A stretch of DNA of 24,000 nucleotides from an uncultured Kriegella sp. (lineage in GTDB: Bacteria > Bacteroidota > Bacteroidia > Flavobacteriales > Flavobacteriaceae). The translations under genes were made by a program, and so were the position numbers. This document shows, piece by piece, positions 6,247 to 19,708 of the stretch (within the stretch, counting starts at the first letter, position 1; each line of letters begins with the position of its first letter). The stretch spans positions 11,716 through 35,715 of the forward strand of contig CBDULZ010000028.1 of the NCBI GenBank assembly GCA_965368185.1. Direction: 5' to 3'. The notes under the pieces are model-generated. The model ran no database searches and was not told where the DNA came from. It saw only the letters and a program-made list of their open reading frames with translations.

Positions 6247-7125
6247 TTATTTATCTAAGACAGGAGTTCGGGTCGCCTGTTTATTTGTGTTTACGATAGC
6301 CTGTTCATTCTTCCAATCGATCCATTTTTGCCCTTTCAACTTTCGCATCATTGAATCATAGGTGCGCATAACAAATACATTGTATAACCCAATTGCAAAA
6401 TTTATGGGGTTTTTAGGCCATGCCCTTAAGCTCATTGAAAAGCCTGGGGAAATGTACTTCATATAGTGCCAGTAACCCTCTGGCATATAAAGTACTTCAC
6501 CATGGCGGAGTTGGGTTCTATACCCCGATGCTTCCTTCAAAGTAGGCCACCTTTCGAAATCAGGATTGGAAAAATCGATACTCTCGTGTGTAATCAAGGA
6601 ATGCGGCACCTTGTATAGATGCTTGGTTTCCGATTGTGGGAACAGTATACACTCCTTTTTACCTTCAAAATGAAAGTGAAAAATATTCGCCATGTCGATA
6701 TCGTAGTGCATAAAGGTATACGAATCCATTCCCCCGAAAAAGAGCATGGGCAACTTTTTCTTTAATTTCAGACCAAAATCGGGATAGGTGAAGTCGTTTT
6801 GTAGTTCGGGTACTTGTTTGAATATATTCCAGAGAAAAATACGGTATTTTGTAGGCTCGGTTTTCAGCAACTCAATGTAATCGGCCATTTTCATTTGGGC
6901 ATGGGGCTGATTAAAGCCCTCTTCGTGCCTTACTGGGCGATCATCGTACAATGGCACGATTTTATCACCAGCAACCTTTTTAATGTACTCCATATTCCAT
7001 TTGGAGTAGGCAGGCCACTCTTCGATCGATTGTTCGATAACTACCGGTTTCTGGGGTTTAAAGTAGTGTTTGATAAACTCCCTTTTGGTAATCTTTTTGA
7101 CTCTGGGGACGTCTTCTAAATTCAA
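6247..7125 (-). CDS. JmjC/cupin_8-like Fe(II)/2-oxoglutarate oxygenase family protein
   Basis: The product is 292 aa. The N-terminus (ITKREFIKHYFKPQKPVVIE..WPA..KW) is typical of JmjC/cupin-like proteins. Candidate metal ligands are H-x-D in FMHYDID and a distal H in EGYWHYMKY. The start codon is TTG (caa at 7123-7125) and there is no upstream ATG. Confidence 0.75.
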   Translation of the reverse strand: MNLEDVPRVKKITKREFIKHYFKPQKPVVIEQSIEEWPAYSKWNMEYIKKVAGDKIVPLYDDRPVRHEEGFNQPHAQMKMADYIELLKTEPTKYRIFLWNIFKQVPELQNDFTYPDFGLKLKKKLPMLFFGGMDSYTFMHYDIDMANIFHFHFEGKKECILFPQSETKHLYKVPHSLITHESIDFSNPDFERWPTLKEASGYRTQLRHGEVLYMPEGYWHYMKYISPGFSMSLRAWPKNPINFAIGLYNVFVMRTYDSMMRKLKGQKWIDWKNEQAIVNTNKQATRTPVLDK

Positions 7126-7194: not shown

Positions 7195-8295
7195 TTAAGA
7201 TTGCCCGGCTAATTTGGTTTTACCCTTGGCTGCTTCATTGCGCTCAATCGTATGGCCGGGCCGTGTCCATTTTGGCTTTTCGCCCAACGGTACAAACTCT
7301 GAATCTTGGGCTTCCACTGTTTTTGGCTGCGAAACTTTGGTAAATGGTTTTTGTGGACTTAACCCCAGCAATTTGAACATTTCCATATCTTCATTAACAT
7401 CGGGGTTCGGGGTCGTCAATAATTTATCTCCGGCAAAAATAGAATTTGCCCCTGCGAAGAAACACATTGCCTGGCCTTCCCTGCTCATCTCGGTCCGCCC
7501 CGCCGAAAGGCGTACTTGGGTCTCGGGCATCACGATACGGGTCGTAGCCACCATACGTATCATTTCCCAAATGGAAATAGGTTCCATATCTTCCATGGGG
7601 GTCCCCTCAACGGCTACCAATGCATTAATAGGTACTGATTCCGGTTGCGGATTTAACGAAGCCAGGGCCACCAGCATTCCTGCACGGTCTTCCAATTGTT
7701 CCCCCATCCCTATAATGCCCCCACTACATACGGTTACATTACTCTTACGAACGTTATCAATAGTTTCCAATCGGTCTTCGAAAGCGCGGGTCGAAATAAC
7801 GTCTTTATAATAATCTTCGGAAGTATCTAAATTATGATTATAGGCATACAGCCCCGCTTCGGCCAAACGTTTGGCCTGATTTTCAGTCAACATACCCAAG
7901 GTACAACAGACCTCCATATCCAATTTATTGATGGTACGTACCATTTCAAGTACTTGATCAAACTCTGTACCGTCTTTTACATTTCGCCATGCCGCACCCA
8001 TACAAACACGCGAACTGCCAGAGGCCTTGGCACGCAGCGCTTGAGCCTTTACATGGGGCACAGTCATCAGATCATTACCTTCGATATCGGTATGGTATCG
8101 TGCCGCTTGCGGACAATACCCACAATCTTCAGGACAACCGCCCGTTTTGATTGATAATAATGTCGACACCTGAACCGTGTTCGGGTCATGATGCTTGCGA
8201 TGAATCGTTGCCGCATCGTACAACAACTCCATCAAAGGTTTGTTGTAAATATCCAGAATTTCTTGTTTGGTCCAGTTATGTCTAGTATCGCTCAT
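7195..8295 (-). CDS. bioB: Biotin synthase (radical SAM)
   Basis: The radical-SAM motif is CPEDCGYCPQ. BioB blocks such as GAAWR and the C-terminal ...SIFAGDKLLTT are present. The product is 366 aa. Confidence 0.95.
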   Translation of the reverse strand: MSDTRHNWTKQEILDIYNKPLMELLYDAATIHRKHHDPNTVQVSTLLSIKTGGCPEDCGYCPQAARYHTDIEGNDLMTVPHVKAQALRAKASGSSRVCMGAAWRNVKDGTEFDQVLEMVRTINKLDMEVCCTLGMLTENQAKRLAEAGLYAYNHNLDTSEDYYKDVISTRAFEDRLETIDNVRKSNVTVCSGGIIGMGEQLEDRAGMLVALASLNPQPESVPINALVAVEGTPMEDMEPISIWEMIRMVATTRIVMPETQVRLSAGRTEMSREGQAMCFFAGANSIFAGDKLLTTPNPDVNEDMEMFKLLGLSPQKPFTKVSQPKTVEAQDSEFVPLGEKPKWTRPGHTIERNEAAKGKTKLAGQS

Positions 8296-8461: not shown

Positions 8462-8488
8462 CTTTTGACATTTTCGGAATGTCAAAAG
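8462..8488 (-). other. Perfect 10-bp stem-loop immediately after the KAS-like gene stop
   Basis: cttttgacat (8462-8471) pairs with atgtcaaaag (8479-8488) across a 7-nt loop. It starts 9 nt beyond the stop at 8497. No U-tract follows on the minus strand, so it could be a terminator, an RNA-stability element or a protein-binding dyad. Confidence 0.5.
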
Positions 8489-8496
8489 TTCTAAAT

Positions 8497-9720
8497 TTAG
8501 AAATAAGATGGAGATTTAAAAAGTACAGATACCGCATTCCCTCCAAAACCCACGGCATTGACCATTACCTTGTTAATCTGCGATGGAACTGCCGTATTAT
8601 CTATAAAAGGAACTTTTATAAATTCTTGTTTTTGCAACATCAAGACAGCTAATTCAAGACTCAACATACCCGATGCCCCGAAGGTGTGGCCTATTTTCCA
8701 TTTGTTAGTGGTCAAGGCCGGCATCTTTTCACCAAATACCTTTTTTATCGCATTATATTCCGAAGAATCACCTTTAATCGTACCCGGGGCATGCATTACG
8801 ATTATATCGACATCTTTGGGCGACGTATTCCCAAGAGCCATTTTCATGGAGCGTTGAAAGCATTCGGCATCTGAAGAAATGGAAACATTATGTTTTAATA
8901 CTTCAGTAGCGTACCCTATTCCTTCAATCACGGCCAAGGCATTCTTCGAATGGCCCGCCTCTAAACAAACTACGGCTGCTCCTTCCCCCAAAACCATCGA
9001 ATTTTTGGTCTTGTTGGGATCAAGTGCCCGACATGGGTAATTTTGATTGCCCTCAGCCGCATCTTTTTGTCGCGCATATACTTTTAGCGCCTTCATTTGC
9101 GCTATGGTAAAGGGTGTCAACGGGGCCTCGCTACCACCGACCAAAAACTTATCGGTTAAACCACTTCTGATCCAAGCCACACCATTCAGAAGGGCGTGCA
9201 GTGCGGTAGAACAGGTTATGGAATGTGATATCTCAGGGCCTTTGGTCTGAAGGTCATGTGCAACCCAAGAAGAAATGTTTCCTAAAGTGGTTGTAGGCGA
9301 AGATAAGGTCGACGCCCTATTCTGGTCTAGAAACTCAGTGTGGTATTTTTCAAAAAGTGCCGTAGCCCCACGAGAAGAACCGATATTGATGCCAAAATTG
9401 TCCCCAGATTTCCACCCTGCAATAGCAACACTTTTTCTAGCGACATAAATCGTAAAGAGCACTGTATCGTCAAGATCCTTGTATTTTGAATCCGATTTTC
9501 GAAGTTGGTCAATCGCTACTTTTGCATCTTCCGTTAATGGAGCGGCCCATTCTTCGGTCGTACCAAATTGCATCTTTTTAAAAAAATGCCGATCCGTTTT
9601 ATAGTTCTTCCAGACTTCTTCCGACGAAACTCCCAAAGGAGAAACAGAAGCTACTGCCGTTATTGAAATAAGTCCTTCATTTGCCCGTTCCCCTAAAGGA
9701 AAGGAAGTTCCATTCTCCAT
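8497..9720 (-). CDS. Beta-ketoacyl-ACP synthase I/II (FabB/FabF)-like condensing enzyme embedded in the bio cluster
   Basis: The product is 407 aa. The N-terminus reads LISITAVASVSPLG. The nucleophile Cys is in HSITCSTALHALLNG, the first His in VMHAPGTIKGD, and the Lys/His pair in TTNKWKIGHTFGASG. This is a C-H-H triad, meaning KAS I/II type rather than FabH type. It lies 45 nt downstream of bioA on the same strand. Confidence 0.85.
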   Translation of the reverse strand: MENGTSFPLGERANEGLISITAVASVSPLGVSSEEVWKNYKTDRHFFKKMQFGTTEEWAAPLTEDAKVAIDQLRKSDSKYKDLDDTVLFTIYVARKSVAIAGWKSGDNFGINIGSSRGATALFEKYHTEFLDQNRASTLSSPTTTLGNISSWVAHDLQTKGPEISHSITCSTALHALLNGVAWIRSGLTDKFLVGGSEAPLTPFTIAQMKALKVYARQKDAAEGNQNYPCRALDPNKTKNSMVLGEGAAVVCLEAGHSKNALAVIEGIGYATEVLKHNVSISSDAECFQRSMKMALGNTSPKDVDIIVMHAPGTIKGDSSEYNAIKKVFGEKMPALTTNKWKIGHTFGASGMLSLELAVLMLQKQEFIKVPFIDNTAVPSQINKVMVNAVGFGGNAVSVLFKSPSYF

Positions 9721-9765
9721 GCTTTTTTAATCGTTTTGTACCGTAGAACAACTAATATAGTTGCT

Positions 9766-11103
9766 TTAGACCAACTCAAATGCACTCTTTATCGTGCTAT
9801 AAATTTTTTGAAGTTGGGCATCTGAAATTACATAGGGGGCCGAAATATATATCGTATTCCCAAGCGGACGCAAATATACCCCGTTATCCATAAAGTGTTT
9901 ATAAAGTCGATCCCTTAAATTCCCGTAGCGCTCCATTTTTACATTTAAGTCAAGCGCATAGATAATTCCACATTGTCGTGTACGCGCCACTTTTGGATGG
10001 TTCTTGATTTCGGCATCAAATTTTTGATGAGCGGCAACAACACGTTGTATGTCACTTTGAATTTCATCAGACCGTAACAGTTCTATTCCTGCCAAAGCCG
10101 TTGTACAGGCCAGGGGGTTAGCGGTATACGTATGCCCATGAAATAATCCCTTTATCAATTCGTCACTATAAAAAGCATCGTAAACCTTAGGGCTACAACT
10201 GGTAATCGCCATAGGCATCAAGCCGGCTGTCAGGGCCTTTGAAAAGCACATAATATCGGGTTTCGTTGTTATATGGTCGGAGGCAAAAAAACTTCCTGTT
10301 TTACCAAAACCAGTCATGACCTCATCGGCTATGGTCAATACATTGTGTTGTTGCAAAAGAGACACTATTCGATTTAACCCGTCTGCATCGTGCATTTTCA
10401 TTGCCGCCGCACCCTGCACAAGAGGTTCATAAATAAATGCGGCAATATTGTTTTGTTTCAGTCTATTCCCTAAAGAAACAAGAACACTTTCTATATTCTC
10501 TTTTGTTGGTACGGGAATACGCTCTACCTCAATAAAAAAATCTTCAAAAGGACCGTTGTATACCGATAAGCTAGAAACCGACATGGCGCCAAAAGTATCG
10601 CCGTGAAAACCATCTTCAAAAGCCAACAAAACATGCTGTTTATTCCCTTGATTGTGATGATATTGCAGTGCCATTTTAATGCCTACTTCCACGGCCGTAG
10701 ATCCATTATCGGAAAAAAAAAGTTTCTTTTGGTTTTCCGGTAAGATGCTTATCAATGCCTCTGATAATTTGACAGCAGGCTCATGCGTAAAACCACTGAA
10801 AACCACCTGATCCAATTGCTGCATTTGCCTATACACCTTTTTTAGGATAAAATCGTTGCAATGCCCATAAACACTGGTGTACCAAGAGGCAATTCCATCA
10901 ATGTATTCGACACCGTTCTCATCGTACAATACGGCACCCTTGGCCTTTATGATAGGCAACATTTCAGGATGCAGTTTGTGCTGTGTCAAGGGGTGCCACA
11001 AGTATTTTTTATCTCTTTCCGCTAGATTTTTCAAAACAATTGAATTCGTTAAACTCGCTTTTTCTATCTTGCAAAGATGGGAATTAATCCCTAAACAATT
11101 CAT
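9766..11103 (-). CDS. bioA: Adenosylmethionine-8-amino-7-oxononanoate aminotransferase
   Basis: The class-III aminotransferase/BioA signature ERDKKYLWHPLTQH is near the N-terminus, and ...DEVMTGFGKTG.. and FSKALTAG (PLP lysine) follow. The track start at 11193 would add ~50 aa of non-conserved sequence. Likely starts are ATG 11103 or TTG 11034, the latter giving MKNLAERDKKYLWHP. Confidence 0.9.
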   Translation of the reverse strand: MNCLGINSHLCKIEKASLTNSIVLKNLAERDKKYLWHPLTQHKLHPEMLPIIKAKGAVLYDENGVEYIDGIASWYTSVYGHCNDFILKKVYRQMQQLDQVVFSGFTHEPAVKLSEALISILPENQKKLFFSDNGSTAVEVGIKMALQYHHNQGNKQHVLLAFEDGFHGDTFGAMSVSSLSVYNGPFEDFFIEVERIPVPTKENIESVLVSLGNRLKQNNIAAFIYEPLVQGAAAMKMHDADGLNRIVSLLQQHNVLTIADEVMTGFGKTGSFFASDHITTKPDIMCFSKALTAGLMPMAITSCSPKVYDAFYSDELIKGLFHGHTYTANPLACTTALAGIELLRSDEIQSDIQRVVAAHQKFDAEIKNHPKVARTRQCGIIYALDLNVKMERYGNLRDRLYKHFMDNGVYLRPLGNTIYISAPYVISDAQLQKIYSTIKSAFELV

Positions 11104-12589
11104 GTTCCAAAGGCTTATACATTCATTGCTAAACAACTGCGATTCCCTGAAAAACCGTACTGTTTTTATGGTTCTATTTTTGACCGCATTCATTATTCGA
11201 TTCCCTTTTTTTTTTCGGGATTATATCGACCGCGATGAAAGCACCTTCATTTTAATGGGACAATCTTGGGTCGATGGGTACCTACCCTATACCCAACTCT
11301 GGGACCTCAAGCCACCAGTTGTCTTTCTTTTTTTTGCAACCATCATCTATAGTTTTGGCAAAAGTTATTTCGCCATTCGATTCTTTGGAGTTATCATCGT
11401 TATGCTGACCGCATTTTTTACCTATAAAATCGGTGAAACGGCGAAATCTAAAAAAATAGGGCTATGGTCAGCCATCGGTTGTGTCTTGCTCTTGAGCCTT
11501 TTCGGAAGTCTACAAGGCGTAATGTCAGAACATATTTGTATGTTGTTTTTCGTTCCTGCCCTTTATCTTTTGGTACGTTATAAAAAATTGTGGGCCTACT
11601 GTTGTGCCGGACTTTTATTCGGGCTGGCGGTAATGTCTAAATTGAATATCGCTTATGTGATTCTTGTTTTATGCTTATATCTGTTATATCAGAACTACAC
11701 CGAAAAAAGATTTTGGACGGGGTTTGTACATCTTGTTGGTCTCGGCTTAAGCCTTGTGTTTGTTATACTTTTAACTTTATTACCCTATTTTTTTCAAGGC
11801 CAAACGGAAATTTGGTGGAATTCGGTTGTCATGGCTCCCATCGAGTATTCGGCCTCGCAACAGAACCCGATATACAAAACAGCCCCTTTCTGCGTCATTA
11901 TTCTAGTTTTCTTATTTCTTACATGGAAAAAGAAACTTTTAAACGTTAAAGACCGAACGGTAGCTCTTTTAGTTGTTACCGTTTTAGGGATAATACTTAT
12001 GTTTTTTTTGGGTGGGAAGGTCAACGGGCATTATTTGATTCAATTCCACCCTGTATTCATTGTACTGTTCGCAATGGTACTAGGGCAGGTTAGCCTATTT
12101 CATTTTAGGAAGCTGATAGGTTATCTGCCGATTCTATTACTTTTACTTCCTATGGAAAGCTATTTGGAATACGCCAACATCATTAAGAATCGATGGGAAA
12201 AAGGCACTTTTTATAATGGCGAAGGAATTGATGTACCCAACTACATCCTTGAAAAAGGTATGGAAACCGAGAATATACTCTTCCTGGAATACCATATTGG
12301 TTATTGGGGTTTAGAGCAAACACCACCGACAGTGGCAGCGACGCATCCGAGCAACATTTTGCGGGAAGCCCTTTTTCCGTATTATAAAAACCCGAGAAAA
12401 ACGGGTCTGGAAGAACTGCGCCATATCATGGAAAACATCCAACCACAAACAGTGATCACCCGAAAGAACAAAAGGGTATTCGATGAACAATACGAAGATG
12501 CAAATGCCTATATCAACGGCTATTTAGAAGTCCATTATACGCTTAACACCACCATTGGCAACGCCAACATACACCAAAGACTAGAGTGA
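11102..12589 (+). CDS. GT-C fold (GT39/ArnT-like) polytopic membrane glycosyltransferase
   Basis: There are about 10 or more hydrophobic segments. The first-loop acidic motif RDYIDRDESTF follows TM1 (MVLFLTAFIIRFPFFF), as in PMT/ArnT-type enzymes, and the C-terminal domain is soluble. Track ORF residues 1-75 are antisense to bioA and are rejected. The start is ATG 11102 or ATG 11168. Confidence 0.7.
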   Translation: MFQRLIHSLLNNCDSLKNRTVFMVLFLTAFIIRFPFFFRDYIDRDESTFILMGQSWVDGYLPYTQLWDLKPPVVFLFFATIIYSFGKSYFAIRFFGVIIVMLTAFFTYKIGETAKSKKIGLWSAIGCVLLLSLFGSLQGVMSEHICMLFFVPALYLLVRYKKLWAYCCAGLLFGLAVMSKLNIAYVILVLCLYLLYQNYTEKRFWTGFVHLVGLGLSLVFVILLTLLPYFFQGQTEIWWNSVVMAPIEYSASQQNPIYKTAPFCVIILVFLFLTWKKKLLNVKDRTVALLVVTVLGIILMFFLGGKVNGHYLIQFHPVFIVLFAMVLGQVSLFHFRKLIGYLPILLLLLPMESYLEYANIIKNRWEKGTFYNGEGIDVPNYILEKGMETENILFLEYHIGYWGLEQTPPTVAATHPSNILREALFPYYKNPRKTGLEELRHIMENIQPQTVITRKNKRVFDEQYEDANAYINGYLEVHYTLNTTIGNANIHQRLE

Positions 12590-13198
12590 CTCGAGCACAC
12601 CCTTAAACTTCTTGGCATATTTACTAATAATCTGTTTATCAAATTTTTCTTCCTCATCGATCCTACCAATCAATGAAACACCTGTTTTGTGCAATATAAT
12701 ATTTTCGGTATGCGGATTGGCATCTCCACTGAATAATACCGAGACGTCATACCCTTTTACCGTAAGCCAATTAATAGTCAATAAAGAATGGTTGATGCTG
12801 CCTAAATAATGTCGGGAAACCACTATAACCTTATAACTGGGCATAATAATATCGAACATGGTATCTTCGTCATTCAATGGTACCAGTAACCCTCCTGCCC
12901 CTTCAATGACCAAGTGGTTCGACGTCTTCGGTTCATTAATATGAAAACGGTCTATTCGCTGCCCGTCAATTTCAGCTGAGGCGTGCGGACTCATTGCCGT
13001 CTTTAGTTCATAGCTGCTTTTATGAATTACTGTTTTATCGTTGGAAATCAAGGATTTGACCTTATGGCTGTCTGAATTATCTAAATCCCCTGCCTGTATC
13101 GGTTTCCAATAATCAGCCTGTAAGGCTTCCGTTATAATGGCAGAGGCCATTGTTTTTCCAACTCCGGTCGATATTCCCGTGACAAAAATTTGCTTCAT
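12581..13198 (-). CDS. bioD: Dethiobiotin synthase (ATP-dependent)
   Basis: The N-terminus is MKQIFVTGISTGVGKTMASAIITEAL..YWKPIQAG, with a P-loop and the conserved K. EGAGGLLVPL is also present. The product is 205 aa. Confidence 0.9.
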   Translation of the reverse strand: MKQIFVTGISTGVGKTMASAIITEALQADYWKPIQAGDLDNSDSHKVKSLISNDKTVIHKSSYELKTAMSPHASAEIDGQRIDRFHINEPKTSNHLVIEGAGGLLVPLNDEDTMFDIIMPSYKVIVVSRHYLGSINHSLLTINWLTVKGYDVSVLFSGDANPHTENIILHKTGVSLIGRIDEEEKFDKQIISKYAKKFKGVLESL

Positions 13199-13635
13199 AT
13201 ATTGAACTTGTTTTTACAATTATCACACCGATATTCATATTTGGTATAGAATGGAAGTACTCCAAAAATAAATCCAAATAAAAAAGAAACCAGTGATTTA
13301 AAGTCTTTAACATTGGTAAAATAATCAATCTCTTTACTGTTACAGTTCGGGCATATGATATCATTACCTTGATCATCGATCGAGTAGCGATTTATAGATT
13401 TCAAGATTCGAATTGCCTCAACTTCATCTTCTGAACGAACTTTGAGCTTGACTCCACCAATAGCATTACTGACCAATGGATCGGTATCAATAGTAAGGTT
13501 ATCAGATAGAAAAACCGGGATACCTTCGGTTTCCAGCCGCCCCTTTACGATTTGTGCCTCTGAAGAATACTGAAAAGACGCAACTGTGCTAAAAATTCGG
13601 TCGTCCTTAACATATTCGAGTTTCCTTATCGTCAA
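13195..13635 (-). CDS. DUF2007-like domain protein with a zinc ribbon split by a TM helix
   Basis: The product is 146 aa. The N-terminal ~75 aa (FQYSSEAQIVKGRLETEGIPVFLSD...VKLKVRSEDEVEAIRIL) resemble the DUF2007 'putative signal transducing' fold. CPNC follows, then a hydrophobic helix (LVSFLFGFIFGVLPFY), then CDNC. There is no internal Met, and the only plausible start is TTG at 13635. The stop overlaps the bioD start as ATGA (13195-13198), and the start lies 12 nt after the bioF stop. Confidence 0.65.
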   Translation of the reverse strand: MTIRKLEYVKDDRIFSTVASFQYSSEAQIVKGRLETEGIPVFLSDNLTIDTDPLVSNAIGGVKLKVRSEDEVEAIRILKSINRYSIDDQGNDIICPNCNSKEIDYFTNVKDFKSLVSFLFGFIFGVLPFYTKYEYRCDNCKNKFNI

Positions 13636-13647
13636 AATACAGCGGAA

Positions 13648-14808
13648 TTACACTTCTTCCGTAAAAATAGCTAATAATTGTAAAACTTGCCTTATTTCTT
13701 TCTTTGTATTAAAACTATGTATACAGATTCGTAGGCGTTCTTCTCCTTTAGGAACGGTTGGGGAAAGAATAGGGCGTATGTCAAATCCTTCGTTTTGAAG
13801 TTTTGTGGCAATTGAACGAACCCTGTCATTGCCCGTACACAAGCAACAATGTATTGTTGAAGCACTTGGGATAAAAAGCGATTTCAAATTTAAAGATTCG
13901 GCCTGTTGAATAAAATAATCTATATTTTCCTTCAGCTGGGTCTTTGCCTTATTAAGTTCCTCAAGCTTGCCATAGGCGGCCAATATCGCAGCGATAGCAT
14001 GAGGTGGAAGTCCGGTGGTAAATACAAAGCTTCTTGCAAAATTCACTAAGTAGTTTTTTAGGGAAAGGGAGCCCAAAACTGCCGCCCCGTGCGCTCCAAT
14101 GGCTTTTCCAAAGGTTATTATCCGGGCAAAAACGGTATCTTGTAGATTTAGCTGCTGCACCAGACCTTCCCCCTTTTCACCAAAGACCCCGACCGCATGT
14201 GCTTCATCCACAACAAAAAAACAGTTGTATTTTTCACCGATTTGCGCCATGGCTTTTAAATCTGGGGAGTCGCCATCCATGGAAAAGACTGATTCGGTTA
14301 CAATATAAATAGCCGCATCGGGAGCACTTCGGCTGCGTTCCGTATCACATTTTTTTTTCAGATCCGAAAGACTATTATGATTGAATTTATAGTTTTTGGC
14401 ATTCCCGAGCTTGATACCGTCGCGTATACTGGCATGTATATATTCATCATACAAAACTATATCTCCGCGTTGCGGAACGGCACTGAAAAATCCGATATTG
14501 GCGTCGTAGCCCGAATTAAAGACCAAAGCTTCTTCTGCTTCATGGAAAGTAGCGATCTTCATCTCCAATTCTTTATAATACGGATGGTTACCCGTAAGAA
14601 GACGAGAGCCTGTTGCTCCATTCTGAACCTTTCCGCTTGTCAAAAGTATCTCGGACGTTTTATTAAGAAGGGATTCGTCTCTAGAAAATCCAAGATAATC
14701 ATTTGACGAAAAATCAACTAAATGGCTATTGTCGATTAAGCTACGGAGTGCATTCGCCTCTTTTCTTTTGTCAATTTTAGCTTCTAATTTTTTTGGGAAC
14801 CGGACCAT
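13648..14808 (-). CDS. bioF: 8-amino-7-oxononanoate synthase
   Basis: It belongs to the alpha-oxoamine synthase family. Signatures are FSSNDYLGFS, GATGSRLLTGN, SGYDANIG, VVDEAHAVGVFG and TFGKAIGAHGA (PLP lysine). The product is 386 aa. Confidence 0.9.
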   Translation of the reverse strand: MVRFPKKLEAKIDKRKEANALRSLIDNSHLVDFSSNDYLGFSRDESLLNKTSEILLTSGKVQNGATGSRLLTGNHPYYKELEMKIATFHEAEEALVFNSGYDANIGFFSAVPQRGDIVLYDEYIHASIRDGIKLGNAKNYKFNHNSLSDLKKKCDTERSRSAPDAAIYIVTESVFSMDGDSPDLKAMAQIGEKYNCFFVVDEAHAVGVFGEKGEGLVQQLNLQDTVFARIITFGKAIGAHGAAVLGSLSLKNYLVNFARSFVFTTGLPPHAIAAILAAYGKLEELNKAKTQLKENIDYFIQQAESLNLKSLFIPSASTIHCCLCTGNDRVRSIATKLQNEGFDIRPILSPTVPKGEERLRICIHSFNTKKEIRQVLQLLAIFTEEV

Positions 14809-18061: not shown

Positions 18062-19708
18062 TTATTGAAGGGTGGGCGAATAATTTGTAGGAATGTTTCC
18101 TAGATCGACTAAAGACCTCGAGGCCTCGAAATTTGAACCATATGTTGCATCGATAGCCTTCATAAACTCGTTCGCCATAACGGCATACCCTTTTCCCGTA
18201 AGGTGAACGCCATCAAGCGAAAATGCCCCACCGGTTACCAAACTAGCGGTAAGAGTGTAGTCTCCGTCAGTGAATCCACCACTTGCCAGAGTCTGCATCA
18301 TAGCGTTTGCATCGACAAAAGCAAGTCCGGCACCATTGGCCGCGGAAGCAATTGTTGCGTTAAAACTGTCGGTTGCCAATTTTATCTCCTCCTGCTCTTC
18401 TGGAAGCAAAACCCATTTATCTTCCAATGGAAAGCTCACGCCCTCCACGGAGAATTGGCCTGCCAACTCCAAAGGCAAGTTTTGAGCGACTAGAGCCGCC
18501 ACAGATGCTTCATTGACCGTTCCGATCACCGAACTACTTGGCAAAACGAACAAATCATTTTCATTGGCTTGTCTTGTTTGTCCATAGGTTGTACCTAACA
18601 AATTGGCCACCAGCGGAGCCGCCTCTTCCGGAAGGCCGAATTGTTGAACAAAAATTGAAAATGCAGGGTTTGCATTTAAGGCGCCTATTATTTGTTCGGA
18701 AATATCCGTTAGGTTTTCATCCTTAATAACTACAGCACTGGCCTCAGTCTCGGAAAAAATAACATTACGCTCCGGCTGCCCCAAGGCCGTATAAATTTGA
18801 TTCAATGCACCAAAAATAGTGTTCAAAGTAGGTATTTGCGGACCAAAATCAGGATTTGTCGGATCCAACGGGTTATAGGGAACAGTAGTAAAATGCGGTA
18901 TTGTACTCACATACGGTATATTGGCCATAACCCCTTGCGCCCCACCAGAGGTCAAAGTCGATACCAAAGTGCTAATGGCAAAGTCAAAAGTGGGTTGATC
19001 GGTAATTGGATCCGTACCGTCACCTCCTTTTGTTGCATATCCCAAAACATCACCGCTACCAGCCCACAGGGTAAAGAAAGTCGGGGATTGCACCATGGCC
19101 AATTCCAATACACTCGCATCAGGTGTAGCTCCTGTCATTCTAATAAAATACGGATTTGCCAACATTGCGGGTAAATTGGCAATATTGCCATATCCCGGCG
19201 CAATCAGGTGAAAACTTTTAGCCCCAGGAACGCCCATATTGTTAAATGGTCCCGCAGGATTATTCAGAACGATATCGGTGGTCGGCATAACAGGCCCGAT
19301 CAAATCGGACAAATCGACCGGCCCTTGGCCATCAAATACCAATCTGGGGTTGAATCCCGGTATCTGTGCGCCACCGGCAAGCAACCCTCCAATATTATCA
19401 TTTGTCAAAGGCTGGGAGAAGCTACCGCCACCCACAAGGGCAAACTTTGCAGCTAATAAATTTGGCATTGAATTTTCTTGACCGGCTTTGAACAGTGCAT
19501 TATCGGTGAACCCCGCGGTCAAAGAATTTCCGATGGCAACATAAGTCGAAAAATCTGCCGAACCCGCAGTCAACTGTGGTGGCGTCTCAACCATTTCCTC
19601 CATCTCATCTTCGGGTAAAACATCTTCAGGTTCATTACACGCCATAAAGCCTATCAACACAGTGAGAAAGGCCAAATATTTAATATGTTTTATTTTCATG
19701 ATTTTCAT
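18062..19708 (-). CDS. Lipoprotein with a split SGNH/GDSL-like hydrolase domain, probably surface-exposed
   Basis: The lipobox is GFMAC, followed by an acidic stretch (CNEPEDVLPEDEMEEM). Block I is VAIGNSLTAG (GNS in place of GDS). A block II-like NMGVPGA and a block III-like LWAGSGDVL follow. Block V is FSLDGVHLTGKG (D-x-x-H), ~450 aa after block I. A tandem 9-bp duplication (attttcatg twice, 19692-19709) creates two in-frame ATGs at 19708 and 19699. Confidence 0.7.
   Translation of the reverse strand: MKIMKIKHIKYLAFLTVLIGFMACNEPEDVLPEDEMEEMVETPPQLTAGSADFSTYVAIGNSLTAGFTDNALFKAGQENSMPNLLAAKFALVGGGSFSQPLTNDNIGGLLAGGAQIPGFNPRLVFDGQGPVDLSDLIGPVMPTTDIVLNNPAGPFNNMGVPGAKSFHLIAPGYGNIANLPAMLANPYFIRMTGATPDASVLELAMVQSPTFFTLWAGSGDVLGYATKGGDGTDPITDQPTFDFAISTLVSTLTSGGAQGVMANIPYVSTIPHFTTVPYNPLDPTNPDFGPQIPTLNTIFGALNQIYTALGQPERNVIFSETEASAVVIKDENLTDISEQIIGALNANPAFSIFVQQFGLPEEAAPLVANLLGTTYGQTRQANENDLFVLPSSSVIGTVNEASVAALVAQNLPLELAGQFSVEGVSFPLEDKWVLLPEEQEEIKLATDSFNATIASAANGAGLAFVDANAMMQTLASGGFTDGDYTLTASLVTGGAFSLDGVHLTGKGYAVMANEFMKAIDATYGSNFEASRSLVDLGNIPTNYSPTLQ

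Follow-up and report, generated by a model that had tools for sequence, protein, structure and literature searches.

A FabF-related ketosynthase with an invariant arginine, encoded among the biotin genes of Flavobacteriaceae, as a candidate condensing enzyme for the pimelate arm

Within the biotin pathway, the synthesis of the pimelate arm is the part that varies and is still incompletely known: BioZ was described in 2020 and BioE in 2025, and the route of Desulfovibrio is unsolved. The described routes to the pimeloyl thioester are BioC with an esterase, BioI, BioW, BioZ and, since 2025, BioE. Here we analyse a stretch of 24,000 nucleotides (nt; hereafter the window) from an uncultured Kriegella sp. 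of the Flavobacteriaceae (GenBank assembly GCA_965368185.1, contig CBDULZ010000028.1, positions 11,716 to 35,715 of the forward strand), in which a divergent β-ketoacyl synthase (hereafter KS) of the KAS I/II type (KAS, β-ketoacyl-acyl carrier protein synthase) is encoded among biotin genes. The gene occupies positions 8497..9720 of the minus strand, starts with ATG and encodes 407 amino acids. A preliminary description of this DNA had correctly named the first four routes and left out BioE, which was reported in 2025 from the Weeksellaceae.

BioZ, a KAS III enzyme of alpha-proteobacteria, condenses glutaryl-coenzyme A (CoA) with malonyl-acyl carrier protein (ACP) (Hu & Cronan 2020, PMC7645780), and its structures show the omega-carboxylate anchored by Ser84 and Ser287 (PMC8024396, PMC12625853). 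The bio cluster of Desulfovibrio (DVU2558-2565) encodes the FabF-like DVU2563 together with an ACP (DVU2562), a FabG-like protein (DVU2561) and a FabZ-like protein (DVU2560); this route was predicted by Rodionov in 2004, its genes were shown by transposon sequencing with random barcodes (RB-TnSeq; Trotter 2023) to be needed for biotin-free growth, and it is biochemically uncharacterised (PMC10102598). The view of the preliminary description that no route through a FabF/FabB-type enzyme had been characterised has to be amended for the prediction and the genetics of DVU2563. BioE is a ferritin-like diiron oxygenase of the Weeksellaceae, a sister family within the Flavobacteriales, and cleaves long acyl chains oxidatively between C7 and C8 (PMC12704756, PMC12915131); the Weeksellaceae reportedly possess none of the classical routes and have bioE within their bio cluster. 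Elsewhere, Balneolaceae and Bacteroides carry bioC, which in Balneolaceae stands beside bioA, bioD and bioF and in Bacteroides is accompanied by bioG. For most Flavobacteriaceae the papers on pimelate routes considered here name no route, with one paper reporting bioE homologues there, and our full-text literature search returned no description of the KS family in Bacteroidota bio clusters.

We propose that the KS is probably, if by no wide margin, a dedicated condensing enzyme of biotin synthesis, which would convert an omega-carboxy short acyl thioester to 3-oxopimeloyl-ACP. With the same modest degree of confidence, we see in it an enzyme of the FabF/FabB lineage, with a thiolase fold and a Cys-His-His plus Lys active site, that would serve biotin and not bulk fatty-acid synthesis. 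A dedicated role in the pimeloyl arm had already been suggested in the preliminary description and is partly supported here. Two of the conditions under which that description would have dropped the idea, orthologues with no preference for bio genes and clustering with housekeeping FabF, did not come true. The linkage to bio genes, the separateness from FabF and the arginine-bearing pocket speak for it, and we infer from the whole of this evidence a role in making pimelate, the likely substrate, the function of the arginine and the independence from BioC.

Both parts of the KS match their Pfam families above the gathering score (N-terminal ketoacyl-synt, PF00109, at 1e-22, and the C-terminal domain, PF02801, at 5e-18). 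The best NCBIfam match is the FabF equivalog TIGR03150, with 151 bits where the cut-off stands at 494; all 18 matching KAS and polyketide synthase models of that collection stay below their cut-offs, the others scoring lower than the FabF model; the sole KAS III signal is a 30-residue Pfam match to ACP_syn_III under the gathering score. The nearest solved structure is that of Listeria FabF (3o04; 110 bits and about 27% identity by phmmer), E. coli FabF is 23% identical in a profile-profile alignment (hhalign), and an AlphaFold2 (AF2) model with a predicted local distance difference test score (pLDDT) of 81 reaches Foldseek template-modelling (TM) scores of 0.75-0.79 to FabF, FabB and the mitochondrial KS. 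When 1.84 billion representatives were searched exhaustively, 418 clusters came up at E <= 1e-30, and among these 418 50%-identity representatives the best 150 have scores of 240-560 bits and identities of 36-66%; the closest named homologue, at 91% identity, comes from an uncultured Kriegella sp. With more than 600 homologues, the closest 20 of which have a mean column identity of 66%, the open reading frame (ORF) is far beyond chance. Because the KS misses the FabF cut-off, as it does every other curated KAS cut-off, and because the 150 best representatives score 240-560 bits against it, we assign it on these scores to a large, distinct clade of its own and not to housekeeping FabF, the grouping that the preliminary description had asked to be checked. 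A plasmid collection yielded FabF-like proteins of at most 28% identity and no member of the family. A KS-like protein from an aryl-polyene cluster of Aureispira, which bears the same generic NCBI name and has Lys at the position equivalent to Arg117, discussed below, was considered as a relative and rejected, being only 24% identical.

The full KAS I/II catalytic set that had been read from the ORF is borne out by the motifs HSITC(170)STALHA, MH(310)APGT and NK(340)WKIGH(345)TFGASG. Cys170, the active-site cysteine (codon 9211..9213; this and the following codons are on the minus strand), aligns with Cys163 of E. coli FabF, and His310 (8791-8793), Lys340 (8701-8703), His345 (8686-8688) and Phe392 align with FabF His303, Lys335, His340 and Phe400; the stretch 8686..8793 also holds Pro312 (8785-8787). 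We counted residue conservation in a family alignment of 314 members, which extends down to about 34% identity. Cys170 and His310 are present in all 314, Lys340 and His345 in 312 each, and the gate residue Phe392 in at least 311.

The pocket, in contrast, departs from FabF. The phmmer alignment to 3o04, MAFFT and hhalign agree in laying the family motif GSSRGAT on GSGIGGL of FabF, which places Arg117 (codon 9370..9372) at the back-gate residue Ile108. The arginine is found in 314/314 members of the alignment, with Lys never in its place among them, and, by motif, in 289 of 296 further homologues. At the same position, I, V, V, L, M, K or a gap occurs in seven unrelated KS sequences, a small background for which four of the FabF-like regions from the plasmid collection were used. 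Phe202, the other half of the FabF back gate, is replaced by Met209, and near-invariant polar residues (S116, T120, S141, T144, T145, N148 and Q208) stand where FabF is hydrophobic. HAPGT takes the place of FabF HGTST, so that Thr305 of the phosphopantetheine pocket becomes Pro312 (in 310 of the 314) and Thr307 is kept as Thr314. The KS has, then, neither the hydrophobic Ile108-Phe202 back gate nor the Thr305/Thr307 pair by which FabF is recognised. In FabF the bound acyl chain meets the I108-F202 gate at about C7-C8, and the I108F mutant is limited to elongating C6 to C8 (PMC9006962). An invariant arginine at the aligned position fits a substrate with an omega-carboxylate.

The same mutant would also agree with a KS that is merely restricted in chain length and supplies medium-chain acyl-ACP (C8 or shorter, such as octanoyl-ACP for lipoate), the arginine being a simple plug: with its back gate blocked, FabF is restricted to about C8, and the mitochondrial KS, which has Met at the gate position, shows a peak of C8 products that is linked to lipoate (PMC9006962). 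We regard this as very improbable, since lipA or lipB is linked to the KS in no locus, its partners being bio genes, and since a plug would require neither an invariant arginine, for which lysine is never accepted, nor the conserved polar residues around it.

In the window, as the preliminary description had noted, the KS lies between bioA and bioB, with all three genes on the minus strand; 45 nt separate the bioA stop from the KS start, and 201 nt the KS from the downstream bioB. The gene for the adenosylmethionine-8-amino-7-oxononanoate transaminase, bioA (9766..11103), matches NCBIfam TIGR00508 with 530 bits (cut-off 405); its ORF extends over 9766..11193, and the start chosen by the gene callers, the ATG at 11101-11103, gives 445 amino acids. 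The biotin synthase gene bioB (7195..8295) matches TIGR00433 with 404 bits (cut-off 225) and the dethiobiotin synthase gene bioD (12581..13198) matches TIGR00347 with 102 bits (cut-off 83), both on the minus strand. The same strand carries bioF (13648..14808), whose product, 8-amino-7-oxononanoate synthase, consumes the pimeloyl thioester, so that all four bio genes named in the preliminary description are present. TIGR00858 is the best match of BioF, at 353 bits and thus under the equivalog cut-off of 426; the genomic context is unambiguous, and the low score may be due to a divergence in the choice of acyl donor (ACP versus CoA).

For the wider picture we read 173 KS loci (labelled L and a number) by tblastn with the bio proteins of the window and by de novo ORF clustering. 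These comprise 80 loci from a one-genome-per-species scan, the locus of Zobellia galactanivorans, 80 metagenome loci from a scan seeded with a distant KS subclade, and 12 look-ups of distant members. The first two sets together form 81 genome loci; the scan loci come from many genera of Flavobacteriaceae, among them Zobellia, Maribacter, Cellulophaga, Arenibacter, Tenacibaculum, Winogradskyella, Lutibacter and Flavobacterium. The 160 loci of the two scans are the best tblastn scorers within two clades. Around the KS of the 81 genome loci we found bioA, which the KS follows, in 77, bioF in 75, bioD in 75 and bioB in 67. At 155 of the 173 loci the KS has one or more bio genes within 6 kb, a share that overstates linkage across the family because both scans retained the loci that scored best in two clades; at 99 of 169 scored loci, bioA ends 300 nt or less upstream of the KS. 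Among the gene orders are bioFDA-KS-bioB (74 loci), bioFDA-KS (30) and KS-bioB alone (17).

This linkage persists where the order of genes has changed. The order bioB-bioF-bioD-bioA-KS occurs at L093, in Pontibacter burrus (Cytophagales, L180) and at L183, and KS-bioB-bioF at L089, where KS identity is 35%; bioD-bioA-KS-bioB is kept in "Bacterium SCSIO 12741" and in another distant genome. In Flavobacterium species bioB has moved or been inverted, and the KS still stands behind bioFDA, while one clade retains only the KS-bioB pair amid unrelated housekeeping genes. Bio-linked KS genes are found down to 33% KS identity. Because the association with bio genes outlasts rearrangements that break the surrounding synteny, it is more than inherited synteny, and the preference of the orthologues for bio genes, which the preliminary description had left to be counted, extends into the Cytophagales.

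Inherited synteny is what would have to explain the position beside bioA if the KS were unrelated to biotin and served a lipid or a secondary metabolite by making an acyl chain that is short or unusual. We judge this quite unlikely. It could draw on the roughly ten loci at which a KS is present with no bio gene in view, on the fact that much of the surrounding synteny (RecX, Cupin_8, DUF6646) is also kept in Flavobacteriaceae, on the NfeD/flotillin pairs that adjoin the KS in two unrelated contexts, and on one unlinked member 4 kb from a PfaD-like gene. Yet the bio-specific linkage survives the synteny breaks just listed, namely the moved bioB of Flavobacterium, the bioBFDA-KS order of Cytophagales, KS-bioB-bioF and the KS-bioB pairs, and no ACP, acyltransferase, thioesterase or other polyketide or lipid gene recurs beside the KS. 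The unlinked KS of L094, L135 and L097, moreover, are 59-60% identical to that of the bioA-linked L102 and are therefore orthologues that lost the linkage, not a separate paralogue. A distinct non-bio paralogue clade, proposed for the unlinked P0241, P0338 and P0165 group, was likewise rejected: unlinked members outside this group are closely related orthologues of linked KS, as in the case of L102, and all keep Arg117.

Some of the genes that accompany the KS are worth recording in their own right. In 24 of the 81 Flavobacteriaceae genomes, a 192-residue unannotated membrane protein and a Band_7/flotillin protein of 478 residues are encoded as a pair between the KS and bioB (e.g., L004, 11261-13280), and an NfeD and FloA pair lies directly upstream of the distant, bio-unlinked KS of L085 (865-2331); the KS thus adjoins flotillin operons in two contexts, with different flotillin families. 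Near two further bio-unlinked members we observe, respectively, a PfaD-like enoyl reductase and a 2050-residue protein 4 kb away (L092, 4141-5859 and 1-4144), and, at a distance of 4-6 kb, genes for a carboxyltransferase and a biotin-carrier protein together with one that faintly resembles a nitroreductase (L182, 1280-4118). In the Cytophagales loci L180 (18938-21209) and L183 (a metagenome contig related to that of Pontibacter burrus; 9378-11844), lysC and lysA, for aspartokinase and diaminopimelate decarboxylase, follow bioBFDA-KS, a curious placement given that the glutaryl primer of the BioZ route comes from lysine catabolism.

The preliminary description had seen no known pimeloyl-arm gene in the window, and this was confirmed. 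Among the 20 window ORFs, which are all the called genes (spurious-looking overlapping ORFs were left out) and were scanned with Pfam, 10 of them also with NCBIfam, there is no match to a BioC-type or other methyltransferase, an alpha/beta-hydrolase, a BioH, BioG, BioJ, BioK or BioV esterase, BioW, BioI, BioZ or a ferritin-like protein of the BioE type. Genes for a methyltransferase, an esterase, an acyl-CoA ligase, a P450, a KAS III or a ferritin-like protein do not recur in the 173 KS neighbourhoods; nor is a dedicated ACP, a FabG-like reductase or a FabZ-like dehydratase present in the window or recurrent in these neighbourhoods. The only esterase-like ORF of the window encodes a GDSL/SGNH-hydrolase-like protein of 548 residues (18062..19708, minus strand, recognised by a C-terminal domain match), which lies 3.3 kb from bioF beside a TonB-dependent receptor, is unrelated to the known BioH types and is not kept near bio genes. 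At five loci, a SET-domain protein (195 residues; Pfam SET, 1e-10) is encoded between bioA and the KS: L020, L022, L023 (8935-9522), L077 and L080, from Galbibacter, Sinomicrobium, Joostella, Flavobacterium selenitireducens and a Bacteroidetes metagenome-assembled genome. SET domains are S-adenosylmethionine (SAM)-dependent methyltransferases, and in those five genomes this protein could conceivably stand in for BioC.

These results bear on a further alternative, in which the KS helps a BioC-type pathway whose methyltransferase and esterase are encoded elsewhere, by elongating malonyl- and glutaryl-ACP methyl esters that the housekeeping FabF and FabH of Bacteroidota would handle poorly. We consider it unlikely, since a neutral methyl ester gives no call for a charged, invariant arginine at the gate, since bioC lies inside the bio cluster in those Bacteroidota and Balneolota that use BioC and at none of the 173 KS loci, and since the sister family Weeksellaceae is reported to be without bioC and bioH. 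Linkage to bio genes would be equally expected for such a helper, however, and the SET-domain gene, of a SAM-dependent methyltransferase fold, stands between bioA and the KS at five loci. In E. coli, moreover, an ordinary KS elongates the methyl-ester intermediates, and glutaryl-ACP methyl ester, about C7 long once on the cysteine, reaches approximately to the back gate (PMC9006962). The KS fills the slot that bioC or bioE holds in other lineages, which fits a functional substitution without proving it.

Returning to the KS as a dedicated condensing enzyme, the following course of reaction can be proposed. A short acyl thioester with a free omega-carboxylate would be loaded on Cys170, the primer most likely being glutaryl-ACP or glutaryl-CoA; alternatively, malonyl and then glutaryl thioesters would be used in two successive rounds. 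The distal carboxylate would be neutralised by Arg117, at the place of FabF Ile108 and thus at about C7-C8, with help from the conserved Ser, Thr, Asn and Gln residues nearby. Decarboxylative condensation with malonyl-ACP would then give 3-oxopimeloyl-ACP, which the housekeeping FabG, FabZ and FabI would reduce to pimeloyl-ACP, the substrate of BioF, and the arginine would act as a plug against further elongation, fixing the chain at C7. A salt bridge in the pocket would in this way do the job of the BioC methyl ester, and the proposal therefore requires neither BioC nor a BioH-type esterase. We keep both the two-round start from malonyl, as proposed for Desulfovibrio, and the single condensation of glutaryl-CoA or glutaryl-ACP, as in BioZ, as possible options. 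The broadest form of the proposal is that Flavobacteriaceae, at least some Cytophagales and possibly other Bacteroidota have a BioC-independent route built on one FabF-derived KS, in which the arginine provides both charge pairing and the C7 limit, and which is independent of BioZ and dispenses with the accessory genes of Desulfovibrio; this we advance tentatively, giving it somewhat less than an even chance.

Several points weigh against a dedicated biotin KS of this kind. Its biotin role is a prediction from sequence and gene context. That Arg117 points into the pocket is likewise a prediction from the alignment, the AF2 model being of low confidence over the pocket-lining residues 121-150 (pLDDT about 50). 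Besides the overstatement of linkage noted above, 18 of the 173 loci have no bio gene, about ten of which have enough flank to be called unlinked (L085, L087, L092, L094/L135, L098, L123, L181 and L182), and among KS less than 56% identical to that of the window some 18 lineages are linked and 6 unlinked. The lack of bioC, esterase, bioW, bioZ and bioE holds for the scope of the search, that is, the 24-kb window and the neighbourhoods of the 173 loci, and not for whole genomes. At these loci the KS stands alone, with no dedicated ACP, reductase or dehydratase, and the housekeeping enzymes of fatty-acid synthesis (FAS) must therefore accept intermediates with a free carboxylate; such acceptance has been shown only at the C7 stage of the BioZ route. 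Finally, FabF-type enzymes normally use acyl-ACP, and we know of no source of glutaryl-ACP.

The remaining features of the window concern the architecture and control of the cluster. Read along the minus strand, the order is bioF, a gene for a DUF2007-like protein, bioD, bioA, KS, bioB and a Cupin_8 gene, with a gene for a PMT_2 membrane glycosyltransferase inserted on the opposite strand between bioD and bioA; the bio cluster is thereby split into bioF-DUF2007-bioD (14808..12581) and bioA-KS-bioB. The PMT_2 gene lies at about 11171..12589 of the plus strand: the mechanical ORF (10877..12589) overlaps the 5' end of bioA, and the true start is probably near 11171. The same insertion recurs in about 22 genome loci. 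The DUF2007-like gene (13195..13635, minus strand) encodes 146 residues with a zinc-ribbon-like Cys motif, a C-terminal CxxC...CxxC, recognised by weak Pfam matches to DUF2007 and Zn_ribbon, and overlaps the start of bioD by 4 nt. It occupies the slot between bioF and bioD in 51 of the 81 genome loci and in 12 metagenome loci, and thus belongs to the bio operon as a conserved gene that has no name; on a loose analogy with the mycobacterial BioB helper BsaP, its product might be a metal or Fe-S accessory protein. The Cupin_8 (JmjC-like) gene (6247..7125, minus strand; Pfam) stands directly behind bioB in 49 of the 81 genome loci and in tandem copies in the metagenome loci L101, L107 and L108. 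We considered and rejected its product as an oxygenase of the pathway: the gene is tied to bioB/RecX synteny in Flavobacteriaceae and is absent from the company of bio genes elsewhere.

As for regulation, a search for inverted repeats upstream of bioF, bioA, KS and bioB in the 81 genome loci found nothing widely conserved, the best being ATTATTG-N5-CAATAAT before bioF in 7 of the 81, and shared control by a biotin repressor is for this reason not demonstrated. A scan for promoters and terminators was uninformative, as promoters of the sigma-70 consensus are not those of Bacteroidota and matches to terminators stayed at chance level. A perfect 11-bp hairpin, CTTTTGACATT-ccgaa-AATGTCAAAAG (8462..8488, minus strand), begins 9 nt past the KS stop codon and has a fold energy of -11.2 kcal/mol (z = -2.1), with no U-tract behind it; upstream of bioF, at about 14870, there is a near-palindrome related to this hairpin, TTTTGTCAAAA.

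Flavobacteriaceae are major degraders of polysaccharides in marine and fresh waters, and the KS provides a concrete, widely conserved candidate gene, together with one key residue, Arg117, for how this large and ecologically important group starts biotin synthesis. If the proposal is true, the annotation of an "extra fabF" would be corrected in hundreds of genomes, and predictions of biotin prototrophy in models of marine microbiomes would improve. It would also show how the pocket of a fatty-acid KS was re-tuned to dicarboxylates, which would be useful for the bio-based production of pimelate and biotin, and would offer a target specific to this pathway in pathogens of fish, among them Tenacibaculum and Flavobacterium. 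Charge pairing would then be an answer to the problem that BioC meets by methyl-ester disguise.

Set against the known systems, the KS resembles BioZ in being a single condensing-enzyme gene within a cluster for the assembly of the biotin rings (in the window and at the 155 linked loci), in clusters without bioC and bioH; like BioZ, it would be expected to hand 3-oxopimeloyl-ACP to housekeeping FAS and to have a pocket for a charged omega-carboxylate. BioZ, however, is FabH-like, with a Cys-His-Asn active site and a CoA primer, whereas the KS is of the KAS I/II type, with Cys-His-His plus Lys, and is without a significant KAS III match; judged by these affiliations, the two arose independently. 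With the generalist FabF and FabB of E. coli, which carry out the two elongations to C7 in the BioC-BioH pathway, it shares the fold and the catalytic residues, but E. coli FabF has a hydrophobic pocket and needs a substrate disguised by BioC, whereas the KS is only about 23-27% identical to FabF and has a polar pocket with arginine for Ile108, Met for Phe202 and Pro for Thr305. BioE is likewise a single cluster-encoded solution to the pimeloyl problem and holds the same slot of the bio cluster, though it is an unrelated protein with unrelated chemistry, and no ferritin-like gene is found in the window or at the KS loci. Closest in arrangement is Desulfovibrio, with a FabF-like KS between bio genes and itself without bioC and bioH, a likeness drawn from description and gene context and not from sequence alignment; in contrast to it, the Bacteroidota KS comes without a cluster ACP, reductase or dehydratase at the 173 loci, and is found in aerobes, reports of the Desulfovibrio type being confined to anaerobes. 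The KS would, by hypothesis, work like BioZ and DVU2563 while belonging to the family of neither. What is new is thus probably the specific clade and its place in the Bacteroidota, the principle of a dedicated pimelate-arm KS encoded in the biotin cluster having its precedents in BioZ and in Desulfovibrio.

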